Shown one piece after another: positions 659 to 49,145 of a DNA stretch of 64,000 bases (the first letter of the stretch is position 1; the number at the start of each line of letters is the position of its first letter). The stretch is from Dehalococcoidia bacterium (GTDB taxonomy: Bacteria; Chloroflexota; Dehalococcoidia; UBA2979). The position numbers and the translations under genes are program-made. Where the stretch lies: contig OZ219871.1 of NCBI GenBank assembly GCA_964291495.2, positions 800,001 through 864,000 of the forward strand, given 5' to 3'. The notes beneath the pieces were generated by a model. That model was not told the DNA's origin. It was given only the letters and a program-made list of their open reading frames with translations, and did not search any database.

Positions 659-1771
659 GTGAAGATCACCGACGTCACGGTCACCGAACTCCGGGCCACG
701 CCGGATCGGGAGCCACCCGCCGCGGCCGGCCGATTCATCATCCAGGTCCACACCGACGAGGGGCTGACCGGCATCGCGGAAGGCAAGGGCAACGCCGCCG
801 TGACCCGGACCTACCTCCACGAGCTGATCAAGCCCTTGATCGTCGGCATGGACCCGCTGCGCCCGCGCGGGATCTGGGAGGCGCTGCGCCTGGGCGTTGT
901 GTTGTTGACCCGCTTCCCCACGCAGGTCGTCGGACCCATCGACGTCGCCTGCTGGGACATCGTGGGCAAGGCCGCCGGGCTCCCGTTGCACGCGCTCCTG
1001 GGCGGCGCGCTCCGCACCGAGATCCCCCTCTACTGGAGCCGGGGCAACGGGTGGCGCAAGAATCCAGAGGAGATGCTGGAGGAGGTCCAGGAGGGATACG
1101 AGCGGGGCTTCCGCGCCTTCAAGATCCGGATGGATTGGCGCGACAACCGGCAGGACGGCGACCCGGCCAAGGACTTCGCCATCTTCCAGCGTTGCCGCGA
1201 GTGGCTGCCCGACGATGTCCCGCTGAGCTTCGACGCCAACTGCGGCTATTCCGTGCCCACCGCCATCGAGCAGGGGCGCCGCTTCGAGGAGTTGGGCATC
1301 GCCCACTTCGAGGAGCCGCTGCCGCACTACGACCTGCCGGGGCTGCGCCAGGTCGTCGACGCGCTCGACTGCGCCGTCTCCACCGGCGAGGGCGAGACCT
1401 CGTCCTGGCGGTTCCGCGACCTGATCCAGATCGGCAATCCCGACATCCTCCAGCCCGACGTGATCATCGTGGGCGGCCTGACCGAGATGCTGCGCGTCTT
1501 CGAGCTGGCCGTCGTGCACAACAAGGTGCTCATGCCGCACAGCCCGAACATCGGGCCCAACGCGGCGGCCAGCCTGCACGCCTACAGCACGGTCACCAAC
1601 GCCGTCCGGCCGCACGAGTTCTCGGAGGAGTTCACCGGCCCCGCCGAGGTGGTCGGCGAGATCTACCAGGAGCCCCTCATCCCGGAAGGCGGCGTGATCC
1701 GGCTGCCGGACCGGCCCGGGCTGGGCCTAGAGATCGACCAGGCCGCCCTGCGCAAGGCCGCGGTCGATTAG
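659..1771 (+). CDS. Mandelate racemase/muconate lactonizing enzyme family (enolase superfamily)
   Basis: GTG start after GGAGG; N-terminus KITDV...VHTDEGLTGIAE; DVACWDIVGK; KxR, DAN, EEP, GE and QPD metal-ligand motifs. Confidence 0.9.
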   Translation: MKITDVTVTELRATPDREPPAAAGRFIIQVHTDEGLTGIAEGKGNAAVTRTYLHELIKPLIVGMDPLRPRGIWEALRLGVVLLTRFPTQVVGPIDVACWDIVGKAAGLPLHALLGGALRTEIPLYWSRGNGWRKNPEEMLEEVQEGYERGFRAFKIRMDWRDNRQDGDPAKDFAIFQRCREWLPDDVPLSFDANCGYSVPTAIEQGRRFEELGIAHFEEPLPHYDLPGLRQVVDALDCAVSTGEGETSSWRFRDLIQIGNPDILQPDVIIVGGLTEMLRVFELAVVHNKVLMPHSPNIGPNAAASLHAYSTVTNAVRPHEFSEEFTGPAEVVGEIYQEPLIPEGGVIRLPDRPGLGLEIDQAALRKAAVD

Positions 1772-1909
1772 ACACAGCCCCGGCGAACAGCCCGCGCATC
1801 CTCACGACCGGCGCACGTCGGCCGCCGACGAGCCTCACGCATCACTCTGGGGGCGCGGGTGGAGGCGGCACTGCCACCTCGCTGGTGCGGAACCAGACGC
1901 CGGCGGGTC

Positions 1910-1955
1910 GGCGGGCACGTAGCGGATGGCGGGCACGTAGCGGATGGCGGGCACG
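1910..1955 (+). repeat. 18-bp tandem repeat (GGCGGGCACGTAGCGGAT) x2.5
   Basis: Seen directly in the sequence. Confidence 0.85.
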
Positions 1956-2049
1956 ATCCGCTCGCCGGCGGCGCCGCGGAAGCCAACTCGACGCGACCGT
2001 CCGCCAGACGCCGGATGCGGACCTTGCCGATGGCCACGCGCGGAGCGTA

Positions 2050-3027
2050 GAGCAGATCAAGCTGGGCCTCGGCGTGGTGATCCTGCCGTACCACCATCCG
2101 GCCAGGGTTGCGGAGCGGGTCGCCATGCTGGACCACCTCTCGGACGGACGCGTGGACTTCGGAACAGGTCGTTCAGGCACCTACGAGCTCACGGGTTTGG
2201 GAGTCGACCCTCGAGACTCGCGCGGGATGTGGGAGGAATCGCTCACTATGATTCCCAGGATCTGGGATTCCGATTGGTTCTCCTGGGAGGGCCGCTACTG
2301 GAGTATGCCGCCGCGGCAGGTGCTGCCCAAGCCCTACCAGAAACCGCACCCGCCGATCTGGGTCGCCGCCCAGCAGCCGGCAACCTTCGACATCGCAGCC
2401 GAGAAGGGCATCGGAGTCCTGGCGTTGGGCTCCAGCACTCCGAGCACTCTGGAGCCCTTCGTGCGGGCATACAAGGAAAAGGTCCGGGACGCCGACCCCG
2501 TGGGCGACTTCGTGAACGACCGGTGGGCCAGCGCCACGTTCGGTATCTGTATGGAAGACAACAAGGAGGCCCGTGAGCTGGCTGCGAAGTCCATCAGGAC
2601 CTTCTTCGGCCCCGGCAAGCCGTACATCGATCAGAAGCAGGAGATCTACAAGCAGCTTCTGGAACAGTGGGGTGGTGTGCCCAATCATCTCGAGGTTGAC
2701 TTCAACAGGGTCTTGAAGGGCGAACGCAACCCCCATCTCGAGGATTCCTTCGACCTCGCAGGCGGAGGCTCGATCCACCAGTCCATGATCGAACGGCTGG
2801 ACGCCGACACACTCGCCGATCGAGCGGTAACGATCGCGGGCGACCCCGACAGTTGCATCGAGGCCTTGAAGAAGCACGAGGCCACTGGCATCGACCAGTT
2901 GATGATCATGATGCAGACGGAGACCATCCCCCACGAACAGGTGATGAAGTCGATCGAGCTCTTCGGCAAGTACGTGCTCCCGGAATTCAAACGGTCCGCC
3001 GCGGCGCCCGCGGAGGCCACGGCGTAG
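2050..3027 (+). pseudogene. LLM-class flavin-dependent monooxygenase (luciferase-like), 5'-truncated
   Basis: IKLGLGVVILPYHHPARVAERVAMLDHLSDGRVDFGTGRS and PKPYQKPHPPIWVAA motifs; the N-terminal part of the fold (including the EHH region) is missing and replaced by low-complexity sequence. Confidence 0.75.
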
Positions 3028-3314: not shown

Positions 3315-3494
3315 GCTGGATTGCCGGCATGACGACGTGCTCGTGCAAGTAGGGTGCGCTCCGGTTCTGCGTGGAGCTGTCTCTCTGAGCGACCGAGAAC
3401 CCGTGCGCCGCTAACCTCGACTACACTTGAGACCCCGGCTACCAGTAGCGCGTCGTGCGCTGCACCACTGGTGATCACCCACTACAGAGATGGC

Positions 3495-4607
3495 ATGCCT
3501 GTGTCCAGCGACCGTAGCGAGCCGAACGAACTCGGGTCAGTCGATATCGAGTGGGGCGTCGATATGGACACGATGTCCTTCACACCCACGGTATCCGGCG
3601 CCTCCGGTCAGGCGATCAACTACCGGGGCCGTTGCCAGGGTTGTTGGGGAAGCTTGGTTGGCAGGGTCGACGAACACCATGTCTGGACGGGGATAAGGTG
3701 CCGCGTGTGTGCGGAGACTGTCGTAGGCACGAAGGCTGCTGAGGAGGAGCGCAGGCTATCGATGGAGCTCTTTGGCAACGTCTTCAGGATGGAGTTCGGT
3801 TCGGACTCGGCCTACGAGGAGGGTCCGTTCGCCTTCAAGGTGTTCCCTAGCCTAGATCGGTTGACCGAGGAAGAACTCCGATATCGAGTCGCCGCCGCCA
3901 CTTCAAGGATTACCCGGAGCCAAGCTCGGTCTCACCTCACGAGGAAGGCGTTCCCGCTCGGTTCGGCCGGCTGGCTCTTCCTTCAAGCCAAAGTCTTGGT
4001 GTCGGGAGCGCCCGCCGAGCCTAGCCTCCGCACGCGGTTAACTGTCGGCTTTCCACAGGTAGACTTTAACGATGACGGTGCAGTTGCTGCGCGGTTTGAT
4101 ACAGCAAGAATGAGCCAAGACCCTGACTCCGACAGGCAAACTATGCTCAGTGTACTGGGGTCCAACATGCGCGATGCCATGGTGTCCGCCTTCTGTTGTG
4201 AACTCGCCATGAAGGCGATCTGCCTTACCTTCGAGGACATCGCGCCCAAGTCCCATGACCTCCATGAACTCTTCACCCATCTTCCCGAACAGAGCCAGGC
4301 TCGAGTCAAGGCAGACTACTCGGAGATTGAGGCGGTGCTCCTGAGAGAGCGACAGACTTTCGGGGCGTGGAGATACTTCGAGAGGGATTCCGAGGCCAGG
4401 GGGATGGGCGCCATGATCAATCCAATCAAGGCATCGGAGCTGAGCCGGGCCGCGAGAGTGATCCTCGACGAGGCGGAAATCATGGGCCTCAGTGGGAGAA
4501 TCTCGCTAGACACGCGACAACGAGTACAAGAAGCCCACGGATCGCGGAGGTACGACAACACAGTCGACGCAAGTGTACGGGGCACCGAGCGGCCACCTAG
4601 ACCCTAA
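3495..4607 (+). CDS. Zn-ribbon + HEPN-like domain protein
   Basis: CQGC...CRVC near the N-terminus; C-terminal AFCCELAMKA...KSHDLHELF...WRY pattern typical of HEPN helical domains. Confidence 0.6.
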   Translation: MPVSSDRSEPNELGSVDIEWGVDMDTMSFTPTVSGASGQAINYRGRCQGCWGSLVGRVDEHHVWTGIRCRVCAETVVGTKAAEEERRLSMELFGNVFRMEFGSDSAYEEGPFAFKVFPSLDRLTEEELRYRVAAATSRITRSQARSHLTRKAFPLGSAGWLFLQAKVLVSGAPAEPSLRTRLTVGFPQVDFNDDGAVAARFDTARMSQDPDSDRQTMLSVLGSNMRDAMVSAFCCELAMKAICLTFEDIAPKSHDLHELFTHLPEQSQARVKADYSEIEAVLLRERQTFGAWRYFERDSEARGMGAMINPIKASELSRAARVILDEAEIMGLSGRISLDTRQRVQEAHGSRRYDNTVDASVRGTERPPRP

Positions 4608-4684: not shown

Positions 4685-6175
4685 TCACGCTTCCAGCCAC
4701 TCGTCAGCGAGTGCCTCAGCATGCTCAGGTCTTCCCGCCAGAATGAGTCCTACAGCTTCCCGATACGGGGCGAGCGCCCCGTCCATACTCCTTGGGTGCT
4801 GGACGACTAGGCGAGCTATGTCGCCTGGCTCGAGCTTCAGTAGACCCTGCGGATATTGCCGGACCAACTGGGCCCTCGATTCGGACGTAGTTGAGGAGAG
4901 CATCGCCAGGCACCAAGCGGCCTGCTCATCAGGGCTCGTGATCCCAGGGAACCGCACACCGTAAAGCGTATTCGAGGCTGTGAGCCCCGACTTGCGATTA
5001 AGCGCCACCCAGGGCCTCGCGACCGACATGCCCGTTACGAAGCCGTCGAACGGTTCGGGGATCGGGACGCGATACCAAGGATCGCGGTCTCTGACCTTCA
5101 TGGCCTCCCGACGGCACCCGCCTTCGTCCTCAGGAAGGTCCAGGTATGCGCGAACAGCTGCGTGCGAGAGATCTTCCTCCTCCGGCCAAAAGAGCCACAC
5201 ACGCTCGCCGGCATCCCAAAGCCCAGTCCAAGCATCTTCGTCGATCTCCGAGCCGATGATGTGCTGTGCCTTGGATACGACCGGTCTGAGGACGGAGCGC
5301 GGGAGCCCGAGCGCGAGTCGCTGGGTCTCGTTGAGCAGGAAGAAACGTGCATCCCCGGTTACAGCGCCGACGCGGATCTGAGCGATTTCGCCAAACCGGA
5401 CCTGGTTTTCAGCGAGACACGACTCGGTGGAGCGCAGCCCACTACTGGTCACCGCCAAGTCGGGCGTGCAGACGGCTTGGCTTAGTGCAGACAATGTCCG
5501 ATGTCTGATCACTTGTGCTCTGCGCCGGGGCTCTCGTCCGAAACCGCGGCCAACGAGCAAGACGGAACCGTCGGCGACTGTCTCGAACATCGGGACGGAG
5601 ACGCGGTGCACGTCGAGTTCCTCGAATGATGACTCACAAATGCTCCTGAGTGGGCTGGCGTAGTTCGCGTACTCCCAGGCAGCCGGCAGGATGTAGGCCA
5701 GAGATCCGCCAGGCTTCAGCAGTCGCATGCCGGCAACGAGGAAGGCCACCCAGTAGTTGGCTGTCGCCGAAATGCCGAACCCGTCGAGTCGTGTCTCTAG
5801 GGCCGGGCGTGACAGAGCCTCCTCGAGCTCGCGAAGCCGCACGAAAGGAGGATTGGCTATAACGCGATCAAACCGCCGGTCGGTCCGCTGCGCCCAGCTC
5901 AAGAAATCAGTACCTAGCAGGTTCTCCACGCCGATGCTGTTCAGCGTAGGTAGGTCTGCCTGCAAGTCGATAGCCAAGATCGATTCGGCGGGAACACCTG
6001 CTCGAAGAACGGCGGCAATGAGCTGACCGGACCCTGCGCTCGGGTCGAGCCAAGAGGCGGCTTCTGCCGGGCCCACGGCCCGGACCAAGGCGTCGGCCAG
6101 AAGATCAGGGGTGTCCGCCATGCCCTTGTCCGGCGGGACGGCGACAGTTCGTCGTTCCCGCTCTGCGCTACTCAT
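4685..6175 (-). CDS. N6-adenine DNA methyltransferase (gamma class, Eco57I/TaqI-like)
   Basis: Motif I LDPSAGSG precedes motif IV VIANPPF; C-terminal TRD-like region; start overlaps the upstream stop. Confidence 0.85.
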   Translation of the reverse strand: MSSAERERRTVAVPPDKGMADTPDLLADALVRAVGPAEAASWLDPSAGSGQLIAAVLRAGVPAESILAIDLQADLPTLNSIGVENLLGTDFLSWAQRTDRRFDRVIANPPFVRLRELEEALSRPALETRLDGFGISATANYWVAFLVAGMRLLKPGGSLAYILPAAWEYANYASPLRSICESSFEELDVHRVSVPMFETVADGSVLLVGRGFGREPRRRAQVIRHRTLSALSQAVCTPDLAVTSSGLRSTESCLAENQVRFGEIAQIRVGAVTGDARFFLLNETQRLALGLPRSVLRPVVSKAQHIIGSEIDEDAWTGLWDAGERVWLFWPEEEDLSHAAVRAYLDLPEDEGGCRREAMKVRDRDPWYRVPIPEPFDGFVTGMSVARPWVALNRKSGLTASNTLYGVRFPGITSPDEQAAWCLAMLSSTTSESRAQLVRQYPQGLLKLEPGDIARLVVQHPRSMDGALAPYREAVGLILAGRPEHAEALADEWLEA

Positions 6176-6938
6176 CATCCCAGGACGCATTCCAGAGAGA
6201 GTCGAGCACGCTCTTGTTGTCGCGAACCGCCGCCAAGGCCTCCCCAAAATATCCTTCCAGCAAGTGGCTCTGGGACACTCTCAGGGAACCCGTCCAAGCG
6301 GGTTCCCGCCGGATATTCTTGTAAGCGTCTGGGTAGAACGTCGCTGCGACAAGCTCGGACGCAAGGACTAGGTCCATCGGCATATGGAGCATCCGTGGCA
6401 CGGAGAGTGCTTCCGGGAACCAATGCAGTTCATCGGGCCGCGCGTTGCCGCCGACCTGAAGGTGGTAGTGCGGACCAGCCTGGCCCGAGTTCGCGAGGTC
6501 AAAGTGAACCCTCAGCATGACACGGCCGGTGTCGGGGTTGGTCTTGTGTTCTAGAGCGGGTGCATCCCACTCCTTTCTGAAGTAGACCTGGGGCTCAAGG
6601 CTCCACACGCGTATGACGACGCGCAGATCAACCGGCCGTTCGGCCGGTTCCTCCTCCCAATAGGCGCTCAAGAAGAGGTCGACACGGACATCGAGGCCGT
6701 TCACCATCGTCTTCGCGAATCTCAGGGGGTTGTTGGGACCTATTCGGAATCCCCACGGGCGCGTTGGCCTCTCACGCCGCCCCTGCTGTTGGCTCACGTC
6801 GAACGCCTCCTTGGACTCAAGCAGCATCGACTTCGCTTGTACGATCACAGCCCCGGCGCCGTCATCGAGAATCGGTCGGAATCGGCTGTCGATGGTTTCC
6901 AGGCTCTGCTGAACCTGACCCGCGGTGATCCCCATCAA
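6168..6938 (-). CDS. Hypothetical protein, DUF2290-like
   Basis: RVHFD...GPHYHLQVGG...PR..HMPMDL motif; coupled to neighbouring genes; family assignment from memory. Confidence 0.55.
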   Translation of the reverse strand: MMGITAGQVQQSLETIDSRFRPILDDGAGAVIVQAKSMLLESKEAFDVSQQQGRRERPTRPWGFRIGPNNPLRFAKTMVNGLDVRVDLFLSAYWEEEPAERPVDLRVVIRVWSLEPQVYFRKEWDAPALEHKTNPDTGRVMLRVHFDLANSGQAGPHYHLQVGGNARPDELHWFPEALSVPRMLHMPMDLVLASELVAATFYPDAYKNIRREPAWTGSLRVSQSHLLEGYFGEALAAVRDNKSVLDSLWNASWDDE

Positions 6939-8002
6939 ATGGCAGCCCGGATCTCTTCCAGGCGAGCCCTGCTTGCTGCCTCAACATACATTTCTTCGAC
7001 TTCATTGCTCTCGCGGATGGCTCTGAATGAGACGCGCGCTTCCTCCATTACAGGAGGTCGCGCATCCGGCTGATAGGGGAGCGAGGTTTCGATTCGGACG
7101 GGAACGCCGAGCACATGACACACCGTGTCGGCAGGACTACTGCCAGTCTCCTCGTCAGCGGACGGATCTAGCTCTAGGTCAAGGCTCTGGCCCGCAGCAA
7201 GGCGAAACCCCTCGCGCACTCCCCGTGCCGGATCTATGGATGCACACAATCGGCTCGCGATGTTGAAGAGAGAGTGCCGCCACCACCGCTGCTGCTCTTC
7301 CGAGAAGGGCCCTCGGTAGGTGGCGGGCTGCAGCAACACTTGGACAGCGTGCTGCCTGAAGCTCTCCAGCGAGATGCCAAGCGCTGTCGCTGCGTGTAGA
7401 TCGTCGTATAGGACTCCGGGATAGCGGAGAAGAACCGAGCGAAGCCAGTGGGCAACCTCGAACACTCTCCATCCGTCGCCTGGCGGTAGCGCCTCCAGGG
7501 CGTACCTCTGGCCAGCTTCATCTGTGTCGAGAAGTTCCAGCAGCGCCGACGCGGAGTGTTCCGGGGTACTACGCAGCGTTTGATACCCTCGGGCAAGCGA
7601 AACCAACCGCGCATGAGTACCGTCCGCGTCAGTCTCAAGCTCGGTGTCCTTGAACATGATGTCATCGAATGCCGCCCCGGTTAGGACGGTACGCTCCATT
7701 TGTGTCCACTTTCCAAGATTGCTTCTAGTAAGCAATACAATGGGTAAGTCCGGCTTTATCTCCCTTATTCGGGCGGCCAATGTCATCCCAAGGTACGGTG
7801 CGAAAGTTCCGTTTTCCTGTTTCGTATCCAACTCGTAATCAACAAGGAATAGATCTGCGTCGGCGTCAAGTAGAGGAGACATATCGAGATCAATCGGAGG
7901 TGCGAGAGGAATGACTTCAAAGTCACCAGCACAGATTCTCTCAATCAGCGCTGGAAGTGTAGTTCTGTCCTGATCGTCGACTAAGACTAGGTTGAACGTC
8001 AT
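6935..8002 (-). CDS. Response-regulator receiver domain fused to an unknown C-terminal domain
   Basis: VLVDDQ...FLVDYEL...LTR...FK receiver signature; ATGA overlap with the kinase gene. Confidence 0.8.
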   Translation of the reverse strand: MTFNLVLVDDQDRTTLPALIERICAGDFEVIPLAPPIDLDMSPLLDADADLFLVDYELDTKQENGTFAPYLGMTLAARIREIKPDLPIVLLTRSNLGKWTQMERTVLTGAAFDDIMFKDTELETDADGTHARLVSLARGYQTLRSTPEHSASALLELLDTDEAGQRYALEALPPGDGWRVFEVAHWLRSVLLRYPGVLYDDLHAATALGISLESFRQHAVQVLLQPATYRGPFSEEQQRWWRHSLFNIASRLCASIDPARGVREGFRLAAGQSLDLELDPSADEETGSSPADTVCHVLGVPVRIETSLPYQPDARPPVMEEARVSFRAIRESNEVEEMYVEAASRARLEEIRAAI

Positions 8003-10224
8003 GAATGTCCTCTAAGCGGCGCTACGACCTCGACGGTAGTTCGCCAAGGACTAGATGATGGTACGATCTCAACATCGCCGCCCCAAGCCTCTGCCAAGTC
8101 ACGGACTATCTTAAGGCCAAGACCGGTTCCTATCCCCAAAATAGGATCTGGCTGGCTCGTGGTAAAGAAAGGTTCAAATACAACATCCCTATTCTCGGGA
8201 GGGATGCCAACACCGGTGTCATGCACTCTGAGCGTGAACGTATCCTTCGTCATTTCCGCCTCCACGCGCACCCGACGCTCTGGGACGCCCTCCCGGACTG
8301 CCTTAAACGAGTTCGTCAGAAGGTTGAGCAGTACCGCGTACATCTCGGGCTCGTAGAGAGATGGTGTGCGCACAGCTGGTGGCACCTCGTTCTCTAGAGT
8401 GATGCTGAAGTGGTCTAAGTACTTGGCGAAGCCTCGCTCCAAGTTCTCGACCAACGGACGAACGGCGCGCGATCGCGGTCGTGTACGGGCTTCCGGGGCC
8501 AACAAGAGCCCTACCAGCGAGCCCTGGTCGAACGCCATCGTTGACCAAGACCGAAGATCGTCGAGTGCTTCCTGATAGCCGTCGAGATGTTCAGGCGGCA
8601 CATGGGTCGCGAGCAGCTCAAAGGCATCGCCAATTTCTCGGAGTTGCCTTGCCATGGTGCGAAGCATGTGATCGAAGACGACCACGGTGGTGCCGGCCGA
8701 AGCGAGTACGCGCAGCATCGACAGCTCCGAGGCTTGCGCGGCTGTCTCCTGGCGGAGGAGCGCCTCGGCCTCGTCGAGGGATGTCTCGATGGCTCGCCTT
8801 GCCTCATCGGGGATGGCCGCCTCGTGAACGACCGCACTCCGCAGGGACTGTAGAGCCTGGGCCACGCTCGCAGCTCCGTCCGAGTCGCCCGTCTCCCGTG
8901 GCCGATCGCGAGCTACCGCCGCCGCCTCGCGTGCGCGGCAGACCGTCATCCAGTCGATACCGTCTCGCACGAACTGCTTGAGCTGCTGAAAGCTGTCGTT
9001 TTGGACCAGCCGATCTCGGCCGATGCTCACCGCCAAGCCGGGGTTGTTCTCCCGGGAGATGGACACGGAGCCGAACAACTGCATATTGCCCGGCAACGAC
9101 AGCATTGGTCGATCGAGCCCTCCCGCTTCCGTCTCAAGCCACTTGGGAAGTTGAGCCTGCCTCCTGGCACGCTCTTGATCGAGGTCCAGCCAGTCGTCTC
9201 CCGGCGAACCGTATGAGAATACCTGGAAGCCGTCCAAGTAGACCCTGACCCCGCCTCTCGCACGTCCCAGGTCTCTCGCTTCCCTCAGGTTGTACCCTGA
9301 GCCCCTGAAACGCCCCCCCTGGTAGACCATCATTCGGATAGTGAAGGCGACTCTATGCAGGTCGGGAAACGAGCGCTCGTGCGGTTTGTGCTGAAGCAGA
9401 ATGTCAGTGTCAAGGAGATTGAGTTCATACTGGGGTTCCCCTCGATCGGTCACCGTGCCGGTGAGCAGCGCCCAAGCTGCTTCTAGGAACGGCTCCCCGA
9501 TGGCCCCCTCGAATCTTGGAAACTCTGGCGCGAGGATCTGTACCTCGAATCCTGGGTCAGCTTCATGGTCGTGATTCCGACGTACGTACCCGCCAAGTTC
9601 ATCCAGGTTCATCAAGTCACGGAACTCAGCCTGAAGCTCGGCCAGGTCCCCTTCGGTCCAACCATCTTTGAGTCCACTAAGGCGTAGGCTCGTTCCAGTT
9701 GGAAGCTCGTCATCGAGGAGCTCACGCGTAACGCTCGATGTCACATCGGCTAGATCGCGACCAGGCTCGAAGTCCTCCCAGTTGAACTCGGCCCTGATGC
9801 GCTCGGAGCCGCCCGACACGCTTGAAGTCGATTCGAGGGACAACCGAGACGCCAGCCGTCCACATGCGAATCGCCCTATGCCCTTCGCGCCAGTCCTCGG
9901 CCTGCCGAATCGCGTCGACCGCGCGTTTATCGTTGCATCGTTCGTCGCGATCCGCATCCAGCCCCGCTTCAGGGCCTCCAGAGTCATGCCCGAACCGTCG
10001 TCGAGCACCTCGATCGAACCCCGTGGACCTTTCACGTCCTCGAAACTCACAACGACCTCGGTCGCGTCGGCGTCGTAGGCGTTCTTGAGCAGCTCAGCGA
10101 GAGCCACCGAGCGGCGAGCGACCAGCCGTTCCCCCAACTCGATGAGCAGCGCAGCGTCGACATCGAAAGCTAGGCTGGTGGTTTCGCCTTCAGGCATCTT
10201 CTGTCCAGCCCTACGCGAAGTCAT
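7999..10224 (-). CDS. MORC/MutL-like GHKL ATPase fused to a histidine kinase
   Basis: N-terminal ELLKNAYDADA/DDGSGM/GAKGIGRFA; C-terminal H-box FDH, N-box NLLTNS, HDTGVGI, FEPFFTT, GTGLGL. Confidence 0.88.
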   Translation of the reverse strand: MTSRRAGQKMPEGETTSLAFDVDAALLIELGERLVARRSVALAELLKNAYDADATEVVVSFEDVKGPRGSIEVLDDGSGMTLEALKRGWMRIATNDATINARSTRFGRPRTGAKGIGRFACGRLASRLSLESTSSVSGGSERIRAEFNWEDFEPGRDLADVTSSVTRELLDDELPTGTSLRLSGLKDGWTEGDLAELQAEFRDLMNLDELGGYVRRNHDHEADPGFEVQILAPEFPRFEGAIGEPFLEAAWALLTGTVTDRGEPQYELNLLDTDILLQHKPHERSFPDLHRVAFTIRMMVYQGGRFRGSGYNLREARDLGRARGGVRVYLDGFQVFSYGSPGDDWLDLDQERARRQAQLPKWLETEAGGLDRPMLSLPGNMQLFGSVSISRENNPGLAVSIGRDRLVQNDSFQQLKQFVRDGIDWMTVCRAREAAAVARDRPRETGDSDGAASVAQALQSLRSAVVHEAAIPDEARRAIETSLDEAEALLRQETAAQASELSMLRVLASAGTTVVVFDHMLRTMARQLREIGDAFELLATHVPPEHLDGYQEALDDLRSWSTMAFDQGSLVGLLLAPEARTRPRSRAVRPLVENLERGFAKYLDHFSITLENEVPPAVRTPSLYEPEMYAVLLNLLTNSFKAVREGVPERRVRVEAEMTKDTFTLRVHDTGVGIPPENRDVVFEPFFTTSQPDPILGIGTGLGLKIVRDLAEAWGGDVEIVPSSSPWRTTVEVVAPLRGHS

Positions 10225-10296
10225 GATGGCTGTCGCAAGACTACCTCACGGACGGCACTGCTTCTTCGCGAGCGATAATCGCTGACTTGCTCTCGC

Positions 10297-10304
10297 AGTA
10301 TACT
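10297..10304. promoter_or_regulatory. Palindromic AGTATACT giving a TATACT -10 box on both strands between divergent defence operons
   Basis: Lies in the 131-bp gap between 10224(-) and 10356(+); no convincing -35 found. Confidence 0.4.
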
Positions 10305-10355
10305 CTTTGCCGTGCCTACGACCGCAGCTCCTCCCCATAGCACGAGGCATCTAGG

Positions 10356-11396
10356 ATGACGACTGCCCAAACTCAGTCCCACCTCCAGCGGCATCAGCTC
10401 GAAGCCTGGGTTCCCGACGGGCTGGGCGGGTTCAGCGATGAGCAGACCGCCATCCCGAGCATTGCCCGTGATCCCGAACTCACCGCGAGGATCTCTGATG
10501 CGGTGGAGCGTATCCCCACCTCACACCGACTCTACCTCGGTGACTCGCGCGACCTTTCGGAGATCGAGTCGGGCAGCGTGCATCTCGTCCTAACATCGCC
10601 GCCGTACTGGACACTGAAGGAATACAGGGACTCCGCTGGTCAATTGGGATCGGTCGTCGACTACGAGCGCTTCCTCTCCGAACTCGATCGTGTGTGGCGC
10701 GAGTGCTTCAGGTTGCTCGCCCCTGGGGGGCGCCTCGTTTGCGTCGTGGGCGATGTTCTGCTGTCCCGCCGACGGAACAACGGCCGGCACGTGGTCGTCC
10801 CGCTGCACGCGTCGATCCAGACCCACTGCCGTAGCCTAGGTTTCGACAACCTTGCCCCGATTATCTGGCACAAGATAGGGAACGCCGATTACGAGGCCGG
10901 CGGCGGCGGCTTCCTCGGGAAGCCGTACGAACCGAACGCCATCGTCAAGAACGACATCGAACATATCCTCTTTCAACGCAAGCCAGGCGGGTACCGGAGT
11001 CCCTCATTCGCCATGCGGCTGATGTCGGTCATTCCGGCGGAGGATCATCGAAGGTGGTTCCGGCAGGTGTGGACGGATGTGACCGGGGCCTCCACCAAGC
11101 TGCACCCGGCCCCGTTCCCCCTGGAGCTGGCAGACCGGCTGGTCCGCATGTTCAGCTTCGTCGGCGATACGGTGCTCGATCCCTTCCTCGGTACGGGCAC
11201 GACGAGCCTGGCCGCGTCGCGCAGTGGACGTAACAGCGTAGGCGTGGAGATAGCTGACGACTACCTCAACCTTGCCGCAGCCTCCTTGCGGCAAGAGGCG
11301 CTCCATCCCCACCGACGGATGGAGATTGAGGTCACCGAGCTGGGTAGCGCTAGTGCAGTCCCCGATCTCACGGATGAGGAAGTCCTGTCACCATGA
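10356..11396 (+). CDS. Site-specific DNA methyltransferase, beta class (N4-C/N6-A)
   Basis: Catalytic TSPPY precedes HPAPFP and DPFLGTGTT. Confidence 0.9.
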   Translation: MTTAQTQSHLQRHQLEAWVPDGLGGFSDEQTAIPSIARDPELTARISDAVERIPTSHRLYLGDSRDLSEIESGSVHLVLTSPPYWTLKEYRDSAGQLGSVVDYERFLSELDRVWRECFRLLAPGGRLVCVVGDVLLSRRRNNGRHVVVPLHASIQTHCRSLGFDNLAPIIWHKIGNADYEAGGGGFLGKPYEPNAIVKNDIEHILFQRKPGGYRSPSFAMRLMSVIPAEDHRRWFRQVWTDVTGASTKLHPAPFPLELADRLVRMFSFVGDTVLDPFLGTGTTSLAASRSGRNSVGVEIADDYLNLAAASLRQEALHPHRRMEIEVTELGSASAVPDLTDEEVLSP

Positions 11397-12328
11397 ACCC
11401 GCAGCCGCGTCCGTTCCGGGACGCCGTTGAGTACTTCTGGAGGAGCAGGAAGCGGTTCGAAGGCGACGAGAGCGTTGCATTCGCCGGCCGCCGGCAGGAG
11501 GTTGTGGGCGGCAGTCACTTCAACGAATTCCTCGCGACGCTGCGCGAACTGTTGATATCGGCCGACGTGCCGCAGGAGTCCGTGTTCTATCGCCGACGCC
11601 TTACGTTACTTCCGGGCTACTTCCGCGCCACGAAGATGTGGGACCTGCTGGTTGTTTCCGACGGGGAGCTCCAAGCGGTCGTCGAGTTGAAGGCTCAGGT
11701 TGGACCGTCATTTGGGAACAACGCGAACAATCGGGCAGAGGAGGCGTTGGGGAACGCGGTCGACCTCTGGACCGCGTATCGCGACGGCGCGTACAGCGCG
11801 AACCCCGCGCCCTGGGTGGGGTACCTGTTCTTGCTGGAGGATTGTGACGCGACTCGGCGTCCCCTCCGGACCGACGAACCTCACTTTCCCGTTCTCGGGG
11901 ACTTCCGGGGCGCCTCCTACGCGAAGCGGTATGAGTTCCTCCTCCGCCGCATGGTGATCGAGCGCCACTACTCCTCGGCCTGTCTGCTGCTGTCCGAGCC
12001 CCGCCTCGCAGCAAACGACCGTAACTACACAGAGCCCGCGCCCGACTTGAGCGCCGCTAGGTTCATCGATGGACTATTGCGCCGTTGCTCCCCGCTCGTA
12101 GGGCTAGGAGGAGCTCCATCGAAGACAGGCAATGGTGCCCTGAGGGCGGCGTCAACGATCTGGTCGCTCGGCGGAGCCTTTGTCGTCCTGCGAGAGACGG
12201 GCGTGCCCACGTCGGGAGTGTGCCAGGAGAGACTGGTGGGCGGCCGGGGCACACGTCTGCCAAGACGACTTTCGCAGGGGTGGCGGGGTACATACCACTC
12301 CGCTACTACGACGCAAGGGAGTAGATAA
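11393..12328 (+). CDS. PaeR7I/XhoI-family type II restriction endonuclease (3' tail possibly spurious)
   Basis: PGYFRATKMWDLLV...VELKAQVGPSFGNNANNRAEEALG motif; ATGA coupling to the MTase. Confidence 0.85.
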   Translation: MNPQPRPFRDAVEYFWRSRKRFEGDESVAFAGRRQEVVGGSHFNEFLATLRELLISADVPQESVFYRRRLTLLPGYFRATKMWDLLVVSDGELQAVVELKAQVGPSFGNNANNRAEEALGNAVDLWTAYRDGAYSANPAPWVGYLFLLEDCDATRRPLRTDEPHFPVLGDFRGASYAKRYEFLLRRMVIERHYSSACLLLSEPRLAANDRNYTEPAPDLSAARFIDGLLRRCSPLVGLGGAPSKTGNGALRAASTIWSLGGAFVVLRETGVPTSGVCQERLVGGRGTRLPRRLSQGWRGTYHSATTTQGSR

Positions 12329-12752
12329 TGATCCCAAGGAAGAGCGCCCCGAACATCATGGGCATAATCGTCTCTACCACCGAGAGTTTCCAATACCGAT
12401 TGCTCTTAGTGCCCGCCGATTCCGGGTCCCACTCCATCGTGAAGAACTGATACGGCAAGCGCGTCTCCATGTCGTGAAGCACGCGAAACTTCTCTGTGTT
12501 GAGTTGCCGGTACGATCGGAGAACGATGTACCACGACGCCGACACGATCAGACCACAAATTCCGATCGCGAGGATCACGATGGCATCGAGCGTCCGGTCC
12601 TCGCTGAATCTGATGAGGGTTCCGAGGAATACTACGAGAGCCACAGCGATGCTGACGTGAAGTCGGTTGGCTCCTTCTCGTCGTTGACTCACGCGGTCGG
12701 TGAGCTCAGCGTGGAGCTTGTATAGGTCCACATACGTGTCGGTCTCTGTCAC
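12306..12752 (-). CDS. Small multi-pass membrane protein (SLATT/RipA-like putative effector)
   Basis: About 3 hydrophobic helices; W...SYRQLN..KF.V...E..LP motif; GTGA overlap with the TIR gene. Confidence 0.7.
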   Translation of the reverse strand: MTETDTYVDLYKLHAELTDRVSQRREGANRLHVSIAVALVVFLGTLIRFSEDRTLDAIVILAIGICGLIVSASWYIVLRSYRQLNTEKFRVLHDMETRLPYQFFTMEWDPESAGTKSNRYWKLSVVETIMPMMFGALFLGIIIYSLAS

Positions 12753-13159
12753 ACGAGTTCTCGGATGCCCTTGACGATGCTCTCGGTGTTCCATCCAACG
12801 ACTTTGTCAGCCGTTTCCCGCACTCTGTCCGAGATGCGTTGGTTAGCCCAGGGCCGTACGGCGAGCACCGGCTTCTCTGACGTGAAACCGTTCTTTGCGA
12901 GGTCGAGCTCAATGTTGATCCACTTGCTGTAGGTGGCATAGACGCCCGCTAAGACAACCACGACCTGACAAGGGGCCATCTGCCTGCGAATCGCGTTGCG
13001 CAGTTCGGTCTGGTTCCTCGCATTGTGAATCGGGTCCTCTGGGGGGACCGAGTAGTCTCTGAACGAGAAATAGCGCCGTCGGTCGAGGAGGTTGATGAAT
13101 CGATCGTACGAATCGCTGTGACGCCACGAGTGACTGACGAACAGATTGTATGTGTTCAC
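12749..13159 (-). CDS. TIR-domain protein (ThsB/MTH538-DUF1863-like)
   Basis: LFVSHSW, SKWINIE (catalytic Glu position), KPVLAV, ADKVVGWN. Confidence 0.88.
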   Translation of the reverse strand: MNTYNLFVSHSWRHSDSYDRFINLLDRRRYFSFRDYSVPPEDPIHNARNQTELRNAIRRQMAPCQVVVVLAGVYATYSKWINIELDLAKNGFTSEKPVLAVRPWANQRISDRVRETADKVVGWNTESIVKGIRELV

Positions 13160-13550: not shown

Positions 13551-15791
13551 CTAGCCTCTCTCGCCGACCCGCTCCGCCTCGCGCTCCCGCTTCAGTGCCC
13601 ACTCGAACAGGGAGAGCGTTGGGGCTTCGTCCCGGCGCTTGCGCGGCGGCTCCTCCGGCTCCGCGGCCATGAACTCCGCCCACGAGAACAGCGTGCGCTG
13701 CGGCCCCGAGTCCACGATAGCCTCGACGGCCACCGTGTCCGCGACCGGCTCCGGCTCGGGCGCGTGCCAGCCCTCGTCGACCAGCAGCGCCTCGGCCTCA
13801 GCCGCGACCTGCCGCGCCTGCTCGAAGAACGACTCGACCGAGCCGGCCTCCTCCTCGCCCGCGACGATCTTCCTCGCCAGGGCGATCAGGAGGTCGTCAC
13901 CGTCGTCCCCGTAGGCGGCGAGGCCGTCCTCCGGCAGCTCCCCCTCGACGGCGAGCGACGACTGGAGCTTCTGCGCCACGAGCTTGAGGGCGTCGGCCTG
14001 GAGGGTGTTCCGGTAGGCCATGAAGACGACCTGGACGGGCTCGCTCTGCCCGATCCGCCAGGAACGCCGTGACGCCTGCCGCATGGTGTAGACGGAGTAG
14101 TCCGTCTCGTACCAGCAGATCGTCGGGAACTCCACGAGATCGAGACCCGTCTGCACCAGCCGCGGGTGGCAGACGAGCACGTCGACGCCCTCCTCGACGC
14201 GCTTCGCCACCCACGCCTCGCGGCGCTCGGGCGGCACCGCGTCGGCCTTCATCACCGCGACCCGGAAGCCGTGGCGGGAGAGGAACTCCTCCATCCGCCC
14301 GGTGATGTCGCGCGTGCCCGTGTGCGTGGCGTAGACGAGCACCCGGCGTCCAGCCAGCCGCTCGGCGGCCACGAGGTCGACGAGCGCCCGCTCCTTCGGG
14401 TAGAGCCGGTCCTCGGGAAGCGGCGGCACCTGCACGAGCAGCTCCTCCGACTCCGGGTCGAAGACGGTCTCGCCCTGCGTGCAGCCGTCGGGGTAGGCGA
14501 GCAGCGTCTGCAGGTAGGTGGCGAGCAGCCGCCGCGAGCCCTTCGAGAGGGCGTCGGCGAGCGCTGCCCTGAGCGCCCCGTAGAGCTCGTCGTAGCCCGC
14601 GCGCTGCGAGAGCCCATTCCCGTCCGGCTCCGTATCCATCGAGGAGAGCAGCACGCGCTCCTCGTAGGGCGGAAGGCCCGAGGCGACGTCGGAGAGCCGC
14701 AAGAAGACGCTGTTCCCGATGAGGTGGAAGAGCGCGGCGGGGGCGAGCCCCGGCCGCTCGCGCACCACCTTGCGGTAGCGCTTGCGGCGGCTCGTGCGCC
14801 CGTCCTCGAAGGAGTCCGGGTCGTCTTTGCCGATGGTGTGCTCGACGAAGCCGTAGCGCTCGATCCAGCGGCTCTCCTCGGAGCGCCCGAACTCCGTGCG
14901 GATCTCCGGGCTGAACCGGTAGAGCAGGTGGAAGAGCGTCGAGGAGTAGCCTCCCATCAGGGTGCCCGAGAGCGAGAGCGACTTGCCGCAGGCGTCGGCG
15001 AGGACGCCGGCGGCGATGCCCTGGGCGGAGCCTCGCGCCTTGAACTCGTGGACCTCGTCGCCGATCAGCAGCTCGAAGAAGCCCCTCAGGCGGTGCTTCA
15101 CGTAGTCGCTGAGCGGGTAGCGCTTCGGTCCCGAGTTGTCGGCCTGCCAGAGGGCGGAGCCGCACTCGCCGCAGGTGCGCTTGCGGCGGGCGAGGTCGCG
15201 GCCAAGCAGCGGGACGCCGTCCTTGTCCACGACCTGCTCGTGGCAGTCCGGGCAGCAGGGCACCCGCAAGGGCTCGCCCGTCTCCTCGTCGCGCACGAGC
15301 CGGCCGCCGGACGTGGCCCAGCGCTGCACCACGGCGGGCTGCCAGCGGTACGAGAGCTTGGCGCGCTCGCGCGACATGATCGCGAAGAGCGGACCGGGGC
15401 CTGCCATGGCGCGCAGGCGCTCGAGGTCGGTGATCGAGGCGACGATGACGGCGCGGGCGCCGGGCACCGTCTCCTCGACCTCGCGCTTCCACTTGCGGGT
15501 CAGATGCGGGGGGCAGAGCACGAGCACCCGGCGGAAGCCGGCCATGTGGGCCGCCGAGGCGGCGATGAAGGTCTTGCCTGTGCCCATCTCGCCGACGACC
15601 GTGGTGCCGCGCTGCGCCTCAAGCGAGAGCGCCGCGCCGCGGATGGCATCGGCCTGCGCGCCCAGTGGGGCGCGCAGCAGGCGGGGGAGTGGGCGGCCCT
15701 GCTCCGAGGGCCGGTAGCGGGGCGGGTAGGACTCCACCACCCGCCGGGCGATGGCGTCACGGTAGGTGTCGATGAATTCGGCCAGGTCCAT
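13551..15791 (-). CDS. SF2 (SNF2-like) helicase with a Zn-finger insert
   Basis: GEMGTGKT, DEVH, SGT, TGLDL, QASRRSWRIGQ; CPDC...CGEC. Confidence 0.85.
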   Translation of the reverse strand: MDLAEFIDTYRDAIARRVVESYPPRYRPSEQGRPLPRLLRAPLGAQADAIRGAALSLEAQRGTTVVGEMGTGKTFIAASAAHMAGFRRVLVLCPPHLTRKWKREVEETVPGARAVIVASITDLERLRAMAGPGPLFAIMSRERAKLSYRWQPAVVQRWATSGGRLVRDEETGEPLRVPCCPDCHEQVVDKDGVPLLGRDLARRKRTCGECGSALWQADNSGPKRYPLSDYVKHRLRGFFELLIGDEVHEFKARGSAQGIAAGVLADACGKSLSLSGTLMGGYSSTLFHLLYRFSPEIRTEFGRSEESRWIERYGFVEHTIGKDDPDSFEDGRTSRRKRYRKVVRERPGLAPAALFHLIGNSVFLRLSDVASGLPPYEERVLLSSMDTEPDGNGLSQRAGYDELYGALRAALADALSKGSRRLLATYLQTLLAYPDGCTQGETVFDPESEELLVQVPPLPEDRLYPKERALVDLVAAERLAGRRVLVYATHTGTRDITGRMEEFLSRHGFRVAVMKADAVPPERREAWVAKRVEEGVDVLVCHPRLVQTGLDLVEFPTICWYETDYSVYTMRQASRRSWRIGQSEPVQVVFMAYRNTLQADALKLVAQKLQSSLAVEGELPEDGLAAYGDDGDDLLIALARKIVAGEEEAGSVESFFEQARQVAAEAEALLVDEGWHAPEPEPVADTVAVEAIVDSGPQRTLFSWAEFMAAEPEEPPRKRRDEAPTLSLFEWALKREREAERVGERG

Positions 15792-48964: not shown

Positions 48965-49145
48965 CCGCTCCCGAACTCTCGCGGTCCGGTTGCCCGGAGG
49001 CTTTGGGCAGCGCGAGCCTTGCATCGTCCCGTGGCCTGGTGAACGATTGGGTCCGACCTCCCCGAGTATCGAGTCGGCTGGCACCAGAGGGCTCAGGTGC
49101 ACGAACGAGCAGCGAGAAGCCCCGGCCTCAACATGGGAGATGGCA

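Follow-up and report, generated by a model that had tools for sequence, protein, structure and literature searches.

Four genes, here g1 to g4, lie on the minus strand at positions 4685-10224 of a 64,000-nucleotide stretch of a Dehalococcoidia contig (the window) and recur in the same order in each of five related loci, so that their arrangement is not a product of chance. The most likely reading, in our view, is a defence module that is associated with methylation, gated by a phosphorelay and transported as cargo of a conjugative element. The fuller proposal, put forward tentatively and with somewhat less than even confidence, is a self-contained mobile cassette for defence in which DNA methylation is used and a His-Asp phosphorelay exerts control.

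Four coupled genes that travel together

The features of the locus are as follows.

4685..6178, minus strand: g4, Eco57I-type (gamma-class) N6-adenine DNA methyltransferase with a C-terminal target-recognition domain, 497 aa (Pfam and PADLOC)
6168..6935, minus strand: g3, DUF2290-like protein, presumed effector, 255 aa (confident AF2 model; DUF2290 link through relatives)
6935..8002, minus strand: g2, receiver protein with output domain, 355 aa (AF2 pLDDT 81; receiver fold by Foldseek)
6938..7570, minus strand: output region of g2, residues ~145-355 (~210 aa) (conservation; predicted secondary structure)
7628..8002, minus strand: receiver domain of g2, residues 1 to ~125, with the Asp55 codon at 7838-7840 (invariant residues; Response_reg matches in relatives)
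7999..10224, minus strand: g1, soluble paraMORC/MutL-like GHKL ATPase fused to a histidine kinase, 741 aa (Pfam HATPase_c_3 and HATPase_c)
8011..8346, minus strand: C-terminal kinase catalytic (CA) domain of g1, residues 627-738 (HATPase_c; HK853 and CpxA matches in the PDB)
8662..8676, minus strand: H-box FDHML of g1 with the presumed phospho-accepting His519 (conservation; CpxA alignment)
9652..10167, minus strand: N-terminal GHKL (sensor/ATPase) domain of g1, residues ~20-191 (HATPase_c_3, MutL match, conserved residues)
10225..10355, no strand assigned: divergent intergenic region between g1 and an XhoI-family methylase gene, 131 bp, presumed operon promoter region

An earlier note on this DNA had described four coupled, overlapping genes for a kinase, a receiver, a small protein and an m6A methyltransferase; the co-oriented, tightly linked minus-strand ORFs were found at that position, and domain matches together with a receiver fold bear out the anatomy. 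The reading frames of g1 (7999-10224) and g2 (6935-8002) overlap by 4 nt, and g2 overlaps the ATG start of g3 (6168-6935/6938, 255/256 aa) by 1 nt. The longest frame of g4 spans 4685-6247, but the most probable start is the ATG-ATG at 6178/6175 and not the TTG at 6247, leaving an overlap of 8-11 nt with g3; the 497-aa version aligns from residue 1 in tblastn against the related locus L004. The 131-bp region upstream of g1 is partly conserved with locus L003 and presumably serves as the promoter region; a search of it for a consensus sigma-70 site returned none.

Gene order, the loss of which had been named beforehand as a possible refutation, is kept in all five loci, from Chloroflexota, Actinomycetota and Myxococcota, with every gene intact, and g2 and g3 are joined by start/stop overlaps or direct abutment. 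For 63 of 79 clusters of g3 homologues, the longest contig has exactly the same size as that of a listed cluster of g2 homologues. Mobile and defence-island contexts were also recovered: the flanks contain transposases, type I and type ISP R-M genes, AAA_21 with DUF4276, McrB-like genes and a PD-(D/E)XK nuclease, and in the window the cassette lies in a stretch of ~60% GC adjoining an ICE-like region of ~71%. Across the related loci, no further neighbour of the cassette is conserved. An XhoI-family R-M pair (10356-12328) lies immediately upstream in divergent orientation; it is a divergent neighbour in one of the five related loci as well (L003), where it is disrupted by IS elements while the cassette is intact. 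The cassette itself encodes no helicase, and an SNF2 gene 3.3 kb away likewise recurs in one locus of the five only. The cassette moves as a unit among unrelated contexts and phyla. Our literature search found no experiments on any member of this cassette family.

A MutL-like ATPase fused to a histidine kinase core

Both ends of g1 belong to the GHKL superfamily. Pfam assigns residues 40-135 to HATPase_c_3 (E 2.9e-21) and residues 627-738 to HATPase_c (E 4.1e-28); in the PDB, the N-terminal domain matches MutL (E 2.1e-5) and the DHp+CA portion of CpxA aligns with residues 477-716 (E 3.8e-8). The NCBIfam model for BbrUII/HgiDII restriction enzymes is matched by the N-terminal part alone (E 4.8e-17, 61.7 bits against a cut-off of 550), and REase_II, the single PADLOC match of g1, covers the same GHKL part. 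Apart from this similarity, no restriction endonuclease family was found in g1 to g3, in agreement with the note's remark on the operon; the XhoI-family pair is a divergent neighbour.

The residues expected of an active protein are present in seven of seven homologues: E44, N48, D51, D75, G77 and G79 in the N-terminal domain, N634, N638, D669, G671, G673, G699, G701 and G703 in the CA domain, and the candidate phospho-accepting H519 within the FDHML motif that had been proposed as H-box, 115-119 residues upstream of the N-box Asn residues. The kinase carries no TM-like segment (top 19-residue hydropathy 1.29), which agrees with the earlier reading of a kinase without a TM sensor. Pfam searches at E<=10 gave neither a HisKA nor a HEF_HK match for g1, and HEF_HK matched none of six g1-type proteins at E<=1 (in a Pfam copy taken to include PF19191). 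Full-length homologues come from the five loci and one Paraburkholderia plasmid.

A conserved receiver next to a protein without a structural match

The AF2 model of g2 matches receiver structures (Foldseek, TM ~0.7 to the target), and every one of 34 sequences carries the receiver residues D10, D55, T92 and K118. The Asp claimed for the receiver is therefore retained, and the ~210-aa output domain is without a family match, as had been noted. g2 itself has zero Pfam matches at E<=10 and zero PADLOC matches, and its 141 homologues are without any Pfam domain in their table; in a set of 35 family members, Response_reg (PF00072) matches 15 (best E 5.9e-5) and Response_reg_2 none. Judging from conservation, the relay is predicted to be competent, with H519, the ATP-binding residues of both GHKL domains and the receiver residues all retained and the receiver fold confirmed. 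The output region, mainly helical, gave no Atlas lead and no significant PDB sequence match. Predicted secondary structure and motif suggest a possible HTH at 7358-7396; Atlas and PDB sequence searches gave no support for a wHTH. The C-terminal tail is strongly conserved (motif at 7055-7084) and modelled with low confidence (pLDDT<50, residues 309-335).

For g3, AF2 returned a confident model (pLDDT 89, pTM 0.88) that has no Foldseek match at E<=1e-3 in PDB or BFVD; structure prediction, which the note had recommended for both genes, thus identified the receiver fold of g2 and left g3 without a structural counterpart. Homology searches recovered 80 close homologues and, with a profile, 582 representative clusters. 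The proposed DUF2290 character of g3 holds through relatives and not for the protein itself: g3 does not match DUF2290 (PF10053) in Pfam at E<=10 or in PADLOC at E<=1, and a few of its profile-detected relatives do (Pfam, 2 of 77, best E 2.2e-4; PADLOC, 6 of 77, best E 2.5e-6, P0305). An Atlas lead also points to DUF2290 (0.89), and the tie, as judged from these sequence matches, is an indirect one through intermediates. No HNH match was obtained for g3 in Pfam, NCBIfam or PADLOC, and no nuclease or other catalytic family for g2 or g3 in Pfam, NCBIfam, PADLOC, PDB or BFVD. H158, G162, R181 and P186 are the only residues that stay invariant throughout the broader g3 superfamily, and they do not suffice to define an active site. 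One metagenomic protein of 608 aa (P0291) is a natural fusion of a g2 homologue (E 3e-52) with a g3 homologue (E 7.9e-36); the search for longer fused forms found no others.

A methyltransferase that is exchanged independently

g4 matches Eco57I (E 1.6e-11), M_Eco57I_C (E 9.6e-6) and N6_Mtase in Pfam, as well as MTase_II in PADLOC (E 6.8e-49), and its motif I (6026-6046) precedes the NPPF motif (5843-5854). The PADLOC check suggested earlier placed g4 and the GHKL part of g1 (REase_II) and found no model for g2 or g3. Among the related loci, g4 falls into three classes with a mutual identity of 24-31%, whereas g1 to g3 share 50-66%; these identities indicate that the methyltransferase has been exchanged independently of the other genes. 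A weak match to the MADS model mad2 (E 1.9e-14, PADLOC) is not accompanied by matches of the remaining mad models in the cassette.

Proposed mechanism and alternative explanations

GHKL ATPase domains of the MutL/paraMORC type clamp or remodel DNA. In the model we favour, g1 would be a cytoplasmic sensor kinase in which such a domain replaces the usual sensory domain. Infection or foreign DNA would trigger autophosphorylation of His519 and phosphotransfer to Asp55 of g2, and phosphorylated g2 would license the effector arm, preferably through direct post-translational gating of g3 by the conserved output domain and tail, possibly combined with operon induction. g3, DUF2290-like and of new fold, stands in the nuclease slot of related systems and is presumed to act on DNA; g4 would set the methylation status of the target DNA and may also provide sequence recognition. 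What is observed comprises the gene anatomy, the intact catalytic motifs, cross-phylum synteny, methylase exchange, the receiver fold, the tie between g3 and DUF2290 and the single g2-g3 fusion; we infer defence by the cassette, the signal sensed, direct gating and the nuclease activity of g3. Speaking for this explanation are synteny, co-occurrence, the lack of any further conserved neighbour, the conserved residues of the relay, the overlap and fusion of g2 and g3, the effector slot, methylase exchange, and the precedents of Detocs and Ambrosia. Speaking against it are the missing catalytic family in g2 and g3, the small set of four invariant residues in the g3 superfamily, a fusion seen in a lone metagenomic protein, and 2021 Pfam models that do not recognise g1 or g2. 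The most specific version, in which g3 and its DUF2290-like relatives are DNA-targeting effectors of new fold switched on directly by phosphorylated g2, we regard as rather unlikely.

The serious competitor is also a defence system, in which g2 is solely a DNA-binding response regulator that induces the operon upon infection, so that g4 and g3 are made only then; g3 may in that case target DNA that g4 itself has marked, much as type IV enzymes do. The template is Ambrosia, where reporters in the methylase and nuclease positions show hardly any expression until infection and strong expression during it, the receiver protein AbrC carries a wHTH and its D60A mutation abolishes defence, and phage DNA gains no protection from AbrA methylation (10.1101/2025.09.30.679545). 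Its authors favour transcriptional control, which counts against direct gating, and the HTH-like stretch of g2 would likewise suit a plain transcription factor; their view, including the non-protecting methylase, differs from the idea of sensing R-M status in the earlier note. Exchange of the methylase without a matching change in g1 to g3 suits an effector that reads a methyl mark rather than a sequence. However, the cassette in the window lacks an XRE/C-protein gene, and its genes form a single translationally coupled operon that begins with the kinase and ends with the methylase, and therefore induction could only be self-amplifying. The g2-g3 fusion and the conserved, disordered tail of g2 suggest a protein-protein role, and the Atlas and PDB sequence searches did not confirm a wHTH in g2. 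On balance, purely transcriptional control appears somewhat unlikely.

A regulatory, non-defensive role, either two-component tuning of DNA methylation as an epigenetic switch or control of neighbouring R-M or mobile-element functions with g3 as an accessory, seems improbable to us. It is in line with the published speculation that such kinase/receiver pairs control R-M systems (PMC8011034), with the divergent XhoI-family pair beside the cassette here and in L003, and with the failure to detect a nuclease, yet the pair accompanies one in five related loci and is broken there next to an intact cassette, which itself transfers as a unit across unrelated contexts and phyla. Moreover, relatives of g3 fall in a family used by a validated defence system (PMC9122126), and the analogous Ambrosia defends (10.1101/2025.09.30.679545). 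Still further removed is a methyl-directed repair or surveillance module of the Dam/MutL/MutH kind, combining an m6A methylase, a MutL-like ATPase and g3 as a small nicking protein. The MutL match of g1, the adenine methylase and the size of g3, which we take to be MutH-like, fit this idea, but similarity to MutS or MutH was not found, mismatch repair has no place for a kinase and a receiver, and the distribution is patchy and mobile with an exchanged methylase; we hold it to be highly improbable.

Implications of the cassette

We found two experimental precedents for two-component signalling as an immune trigger, Detocs and Ambrosia, and the cassette would extend this idea to three further phyla. 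Here, a known HNH nuclease is swapped for a protein family whose fold is neither solved nor recognisable. This suggests a modular effector slot and makes DUF2290-like proteins candidates for an effector class that is new and shared with a helicase-based system. If g3 is indeed gated by phosphorylated g2, this would be R-M-like immunity in which a phosphorelay driven by a MutL/MORC-type clamp licenses attack post-translationally and an exchangeable methylase provides the mark or the sequence recognition, and a role could be assigned to DUF2290 in the helicase system. The conserved combination of a MutL/MORC-type ATPase and a kinase core is also a tractable bacterial system in which to study how a GHKL DNA clamp turns DNA state into a signal, and independent methylase exchange suggests a simple route for reprogramming specificity.

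Comparison with known systems

Several systems share single elements with the cassette. Classical type II R-M systems pair the methylase with a restriction endonuclease, which is not recognisable here, and MADS, an eight-gene operon with OLD-like ATPase-nuclease modules (PMC13662399), is represented by the mad2 methylase model only. The canonical two-component features are present, namely phospho-His, N, G1, F and G2 boxes and the receiver Asp, Thr and Lys, from which phosphotransfer is predicted. The paraMORC GHKL ATPases of R-M systems resemble g1 in their N-terminal GHKL domain with intact ATP-binding motifs, the methylase beside them and their mobile DNA (Iyer, Abhiman, Aravind 2008, PMC2292703); the passages concerned describe no kinase/receiver fusion, and the word 'receiver' occurs 0 times in that paper.

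Detocs couples a receiver to a non-transcriptional effector, and mutation of its His or Asp abolishes defence (10.1101/2023.01.24.525353). A His-Asp phosphorelay directly serving immunity would be common to both, whereas the TPR sensor, the buffer receiver and the PNP ATP-nucleosidase effector are reported for Detocs, which has no methylase among its described components. The precedent of DUF2290 with a helicase, named in the earlier note, is indeed on record: the system is validated against T7, with DUF2290 as the non-helicase partner (Rousset et al. 2022, PMC9122126). Both place a protein of the DUF2290-like superfamily beside an ATP-driven sensor or motor, but g3 falls below the DUF2290 models, a GHKL-kinase and a receiver stand in place of the helicase, and a methylase is present.

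The pairs of MORC-type kinases and receivers near R-M genes that the note mentions are likewise documented, from computation in 2021, as paraMORC-kinase/RR-like pairs (HEF_HK PF19191 / Response_reg_2 PF19192) adjoining methylases (PMC8011034). They share with the cassette a soluble kinase of the order HATPase_c_3, H-box, HATPase_c, an adjacent receiver-like gene with an uncharacterised C-terminal part, and a methylase alongside. In contrast, 0 of 6 g1-type proteins match HEF_HK and 0 of 35 g2-type proteins Response_reg_2, with 15 of 35 matching the canonical Response_reg, and the methylase of the pairs is a C5 enzyme and not an Eco57I-type N6A enzyme. Table S2 of that study contains 82 HNH_2 entries and none for DUF2290 or Eco57I.

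By gene content and domains, the closest counterpart is Ambrosia (AbrR-AbrA-AbrB-AbrC-AbrD: XRE, N6A methylase, HATPase kinase, REC, HNH nuclease), validated as anti-phage with a required receiver Asp (10.1101/2025.09.30.679545), so that the description of this kind of system as largely uncharacterised no longer applies. Both clusters hold an N6-adenine methyltransferase (in g4 Eco57I, N6_Mtase and NPPF), a HATPase-type sensor kinase (in g1 HATPase_c and a conserved H-box, a domain-level match only) and a receiver protein with a conserved phospho-Asp, followed by one further effector gene. Ambrosia is headed by a HipB-like XRE regulator, and the cassette has no such ORF between 4607 and 10356; the methylase is second in Ambrosia and last here; and the hosts are Gammaproteobacteria as opposed to Actinomycetota, Chloroflexota and Myxococcota. 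The Paraburkholderia plasmid locus (L006) has the Ambrosia gene order, with an 81-aa HTH gene at its head followed by genes for a methyltransferase, a kinase, a receiver-like protein and a small protein with g3-like motifs only. The paraMORC-kinase/receiver/methylase kind is thus already known from the 2021 description and the 2025 validation of Ambrosia. The features that separate the cassette from both precedents are its lack of recognition by the 2021 Pfam models, its organisation without an XRE regulator, and a DUF2290-like protein in the Ambrosia nuclease position. The gene after the receiver encodes an HNH nuclease in Ambrosia, where it is of type IV and comes last, as well as in the 2021 data set (PMC8011034), and g3 occupies this slot here: the cassette most resembles Ambrosia, but with a different presumed effector.

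Organisation of the cassette and its surroundings

Four tightly packed genes (g1-g2-g3-g4, here the cassette) lie on the minus strand, and their reading frames and junctions confirm the overlapping arrangement at 4685-10224 that an earlier note on this DNA had claimed.

Genes of the cassette
7999-10224, minus strand: g1, paraMORC/MutL-like GHKL and histidine kinase protein (741-aa ORF)
6935-8002, minus strand: g2, receiver protein (355-aa ORF)
6168-6935, minus strand: g3, DUF2290-like protein (255 aa counted from ATG; the TTG codon just before it is likewise open)
4685-6247 as longest ORF, minus strand: g4, N6-adenine methyltransferase (likelier start, ATG-ATG at 6178/6175)

An ATGA of 4 nt is common to g1 and g2, and the stop codon of g2 overlaps the ATG of g3 by one base. 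The start of g4 is most likely the ATG-ATG pair, 8-11 nt within the end of g3; L004, one of five related genome loci (L001-L005), aligned from residue 1 of this 497-aa version of g4 (tblastn). No TM-like segment was found in any of the four proteins, which agrees with the claim that the kinase has no TM sensor. Upstream of g1, no consensus site emerged from a promoter scan, and no tRNA genes were found within the window. The cassette lies in a stretch (~2-13.5 kb) of ~60% G+C inside DNA of ~71% G+C, and it resembles cargo of lower G+C located at one end of an ICE-like region.

Neighbouring features
1051-3027, plus strand: luciferase-like monooxygenase (Pfam match at residues 334-616)
3354-4607, plus strand: 417-aa ORF
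10356-12328, plus strand: XhoI-family type II R-M pair, divergent from g1 across 131 bp
10356-11396, plus strand: N6_N4 methylase of this pair
11393-12328, plus strand: XhoI-family endonuclease of this pair (Pfam E 5.1e-69)
12306-12794, minus strand: 8xMP family small membrane protein (PF24838, E 5.5e-33)
13551-50729: ICE-like region, ~71% G+C
13551-15791: SNF2 helicase, in the ICE-like region
36409-41385, minus strand: 1658-aa protein of the mobile region, with PPDK_N (ATP-grasp-like), fibronectin type III and Ig-like domains
41583-42689: tyrosine integrase, in the ICE-like region
44596-48427: McrBC-like pair, in the ICE-like region
48813-50729: large serine recombinase, in the ICE-like region

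Further genes of the ICE-like region encode a DUF6094 methyltransferase, SSB, a Rad52-like protein, TrbL, a TraG/VirB4-like ATPase, a coupling protein, a relaxase and an M78 peptidase. The drop in G+C starts within the luciferase-like monooxygenase ORF, which is probably over-extended at its 5' end. The 8xMP gene directly follows the XhoI-family endonuclease gene, with its own 3' end running into the long endonuclease ORF. The same XhoI-family pair also adjoins the cassette in L003, with 76-85% identity, but in that locus IS elements interrupt the methylase gene. The 417-aa ORF is convergent with g4 and has a weak HEPN match (E 0.033). Two neighbours were rejected as parts of the system, given that the SNF2 helicase recurs in one of the five loci and the 417-aa ORF in none.

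Kinase and receiver

The kinase g1 contains two GHKL ATPase domains: residues 40-135 match HATPase_c_3 (E 2.9e-21), and residues 627-738 match a HATPase_c of the kinase type (E 4.1e-28). The N-terminal domain is similar to the ATPase head found in BbrUII/HgiDII-type restriction enzymes (NCBIfam E 4.8e-17, well short of the family cut-off and confined to the N-terminal part) and is also MutL-like (PDB, E 2.1e-5). The DHp+CA core of CpxA aligned with residues 477-716 (PDB, E 3.8e-8). The DHp families (HisKA, HEF_HK and others) gave no match in g1 at E<=10, and the H-box region searched alone against the PDB returned nothing. The histidine of the FDHML motif read earlier as an atypical H-box, H519, is kept in all seven homologues compared, as are the N-terminal GHKL residues E44, N48, D51, D75, G77 and G79 (7/7) and the N, G1 and G2 residues of the kinase (7/7). 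The N-box asparagines follow H519 by 115-119 residues, a normal kinase spacing comparable to that of EnvZ, HK853 and CpxA.

Searches of g2 against Pfam, NCBIfam and PADLOC gave no match. In a model built from 34 homologues (pLDDT 81), the N-terminus forms a (beta-alpha)5 domain that is matched by many receiver structures (TM ~0.7, normalised to the target), and D10, D55, T92 and K118 are invariant (34/34 sequences). At E<=1, the canonical Response_reg model is matched by 15 of the 35 family members (best 5.9e-5) and Response_reg_2 by none. The receiver aspartate of the earlier note is D55, and the output domain of ~220 aa corresponds to the unassigned residues ~145-355, which are mainly helical in the model. 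This part gave no Atlas lead and nothing significant in the PDB by profile or sequence. Two alignments used as search profiles, A2 and A3, found just marginal receiver matches in the PDB (E 0.034) and noise. The helical part of g2 includes a stretch that reads like an HTH. Coinciding with this stretch are weak, non-significant calponin-homology-like matches to MICAL-type proteins (E 0.2-0.3; query 175-260, 7223-7480 on the minus strand; residues 182-240). Conservation within g2 is highest in a motif at the C-terminal tail, which is modelled at pLDDT<50.

A protein indirectly related to DUF2290 and its possible tie to the receiver

None of the 80 close homologues of g3 (47-75% identity) is named or carries a Pfam domain, and a profile search at E<=1e-3 returned 582 representative clusters, almost all of them ~250 aa long and unfused. 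The structure prediction proposed in the earlier note for g2 and g3 recovered a receiver fold in the former but no fold match for the latter: g3 is modelled well (pLDDT 89, pTM 0.88), and Foldseek found no match at E<=1e-3 in the PDB or in BFVD. The designation 'DUF2290-like' holds only through relatives and not for g3 itself, which does not match DUF2290. Two of 77 relatives match the Pfam family (best 2.2e-4) and six of 77 the PADLOC DUF2290 models (best 2.5e-6, by P0305, a full-length g3 relative at ~3e-32); Atlas lists for g3 a cluster that partly carries DUF2290 (score 0.89). The common core is the region around HxD ... PxYHxQxGG ... PR..H.P.DL. Readings of the conserved His, Asp and Arg residues of g3 and g2 as Fe(II)/2OG-dioxygenase, PD-(D/E)xK, HNH or HEPN were dropped, there being no fold or profile support.

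The metagenomic protein P0291 (608 aa) joins both partners: residues 1-359 are homologous to g2 (30% identity, E 3e-52) and residues 390-605 to g3 (E 7.9e-36). No other fused form appears among the best 150 profile matches, and an A3 alignment search found no further g2-g3 fusions or longer g3 forms, which is weak evidence. The source of P0291 is a low-G+C organism. Complex prediction for g2 (140-355) with g3 scored 0.01 against a mark of 0.32 and counts neither way.

Conservation of the cassette and exchange of the methylase

A scan with the g3 alignment, covering one genome per species, identified the five loci in three Dehalococcoidia MAGs, Candidatus Spongiisocius (Acidimicrobiia) and an Archangium MAG. 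Gene order, which the earlier note had named as a check, is conserved: g1-g2-g3-g4 occur in the same order and orientation in 5/5 loci, with every gene intact. Beyond the cassette the loci have no other conserved surroundings, and their flanks contain transposases, a type ISP-like enzyme, type I R-M genes, AAA_21+DUF4276, a PD-(D/E)XK nuclease and a McrB-like ATPase. As a metagenome proxy, 63 of 79 g3-homologue clusters match a g2-homologue cluster (120 listed) exactly in the size of the longest contig; five of the 16 unmatched clusters are on contigs <2.1 kb.

The methylase g4 is Eco57I-type, with motif I, then NPPF and a C-terminal M_Eco57I_C-type domain, in line with the m6A methyltransferase of the earlier note, and all loci encode this type. 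Identity of g1-g3 is 50-66% in all between-lineage pairs among the window, L003, L004, L001 and L002. The g4 proteins fall into three classes, namely the window, L003 and L004 (58-71%), L001 and L002 (78%), and L005, with 24-31% identity between classes. By these identities, exchange or divergence of the methylase has taken place independently of g1-g3, which argues that g1-g3 themselves read no specific sequence.

Searching plasmids with g2 (tblastn) gave one match, on a Paraburkholderia plasmid (L006, NZ_AP023177.1, 3491-9123), where a distant variant adjoins a tyrosine recombinase in an order like that of the anti-phage system Ambrosia. The series opens with an HTH regulator of 81 aa and a SAM-dependent methyltransferase that shares 25% identity with g4 (E 1e-10). 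Next come a 745-aa 'sensor histidine kinase', which aligns with g1 full-length at 29% identity (E 2.7e-68), and a hypothetical protein of 355 aa that matches g2 in its C-terminal domain (E 1e-10); a 225-aa hypothetical protein closes the series. This last protein is undetected by g3 profiles and reaches an hhalign probability of only 8%; the aligned stretch has HxD ... PxFHxQxG, and P..H..P..L.L comes later in the protein, in the same order as in g3, which is suggestive only of a relationship. Plasmid searches (tblastn) with g3 and two single proteins from our searches, P0340 and P0305, found nothing, and the receiver-like gene of L006 matched only itself.

Proposed mechanism

We consider the cassette most likely to be a defence module that resembles Ambrosia but is equipped with another effector. 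The kinase g1 would act as the sensor, its classical input domain being replaced by the MutL/paraMORC head, and phosphotransfer from H519 to D55 would activate g2. The putative effector is g3, presumed to be so from the position of nucleases in related systems and from its kinship to the protein that accompanies the helicase in another defence pair. The DNA mark would be set by g4. For the step between receiver and effector, we tentatively favour direct gating of g3 by g2, because of the P0291 fusion, the conserved translational coupling of g2 and g3, the conserved but unstructured tail of g2, the single-operon layout and the lack of an XRE gene. Purely transcriptional control has a precedent in the proposal made for Ambrosia, and on the same evidence we regard it as somewhat less probable. 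Roles outside defence fare worse, because the cassette travels as a unit among unrelated, defence-rich or mobile contexts and has the XhoI neighbour in only one of five loci: a regulatory function is improbable, and a repair-like one would surprise us greatly. The phosphorelay-gated defence of the earlier note is supported in part only.

Comparison with known systems

ParaMORC GHKL ATPases have been placed in R-M systems (Iyer et al., 2008, PMC2292703), in a text where the word 'receiver' does not occur. The MORC-kinase/receiver pairs near R-M genes that the earlier note mentioned are described in a computational study (Bellieny-Rabelo et al., 2021, PMC8011034), in which HATPase_c_3+HEF_HK+HATPase_c kinases adjoin Response_reg_2 proteins and, in most cases, C5 methylases. 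In contrast to our cassette, neither DUF2290 nor Eco57I is listed in Table S2 of that study, whereas HNH_2 has 82 entries. The DUF2290 system of the earlier note is equally on record: a helicase and a DUF2290 protein together block T7 (Rousset et al., 2022, PMC9122126), and Detocs is another defensive two-component system (bioRxiv 10.1101/2023.01.24.525353). MADS (PMC13662399) has eight genes and a make-up unlike the cassette, with only its methylase model matching g4, weakly. Our literature search found no paper combining 'DUF2290' with 'histidine kinase'.

The closest counterpart is Ambrosia, validated in Pseudomonas and composed of an XRE regulator, an N6A methylase, a HATPase kinase, a REC/wHTH protein and a type IV HNH nuclease (10.1101/2025.09.30.679545). 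According to this preprint, all five proteins are required, the receiver mutant D60A is dead, infection raises expression, and phages gained no protection from methylation by the enzyme of the system itself. The likeness of the cassette to Ambrosia is one of gene content, and the two differ in the effector. The earlier description 'largely uncharacterised' therefore needs adjusting: the kind is known, through Ambrosia, but barely characterised, and the variant described here is new.
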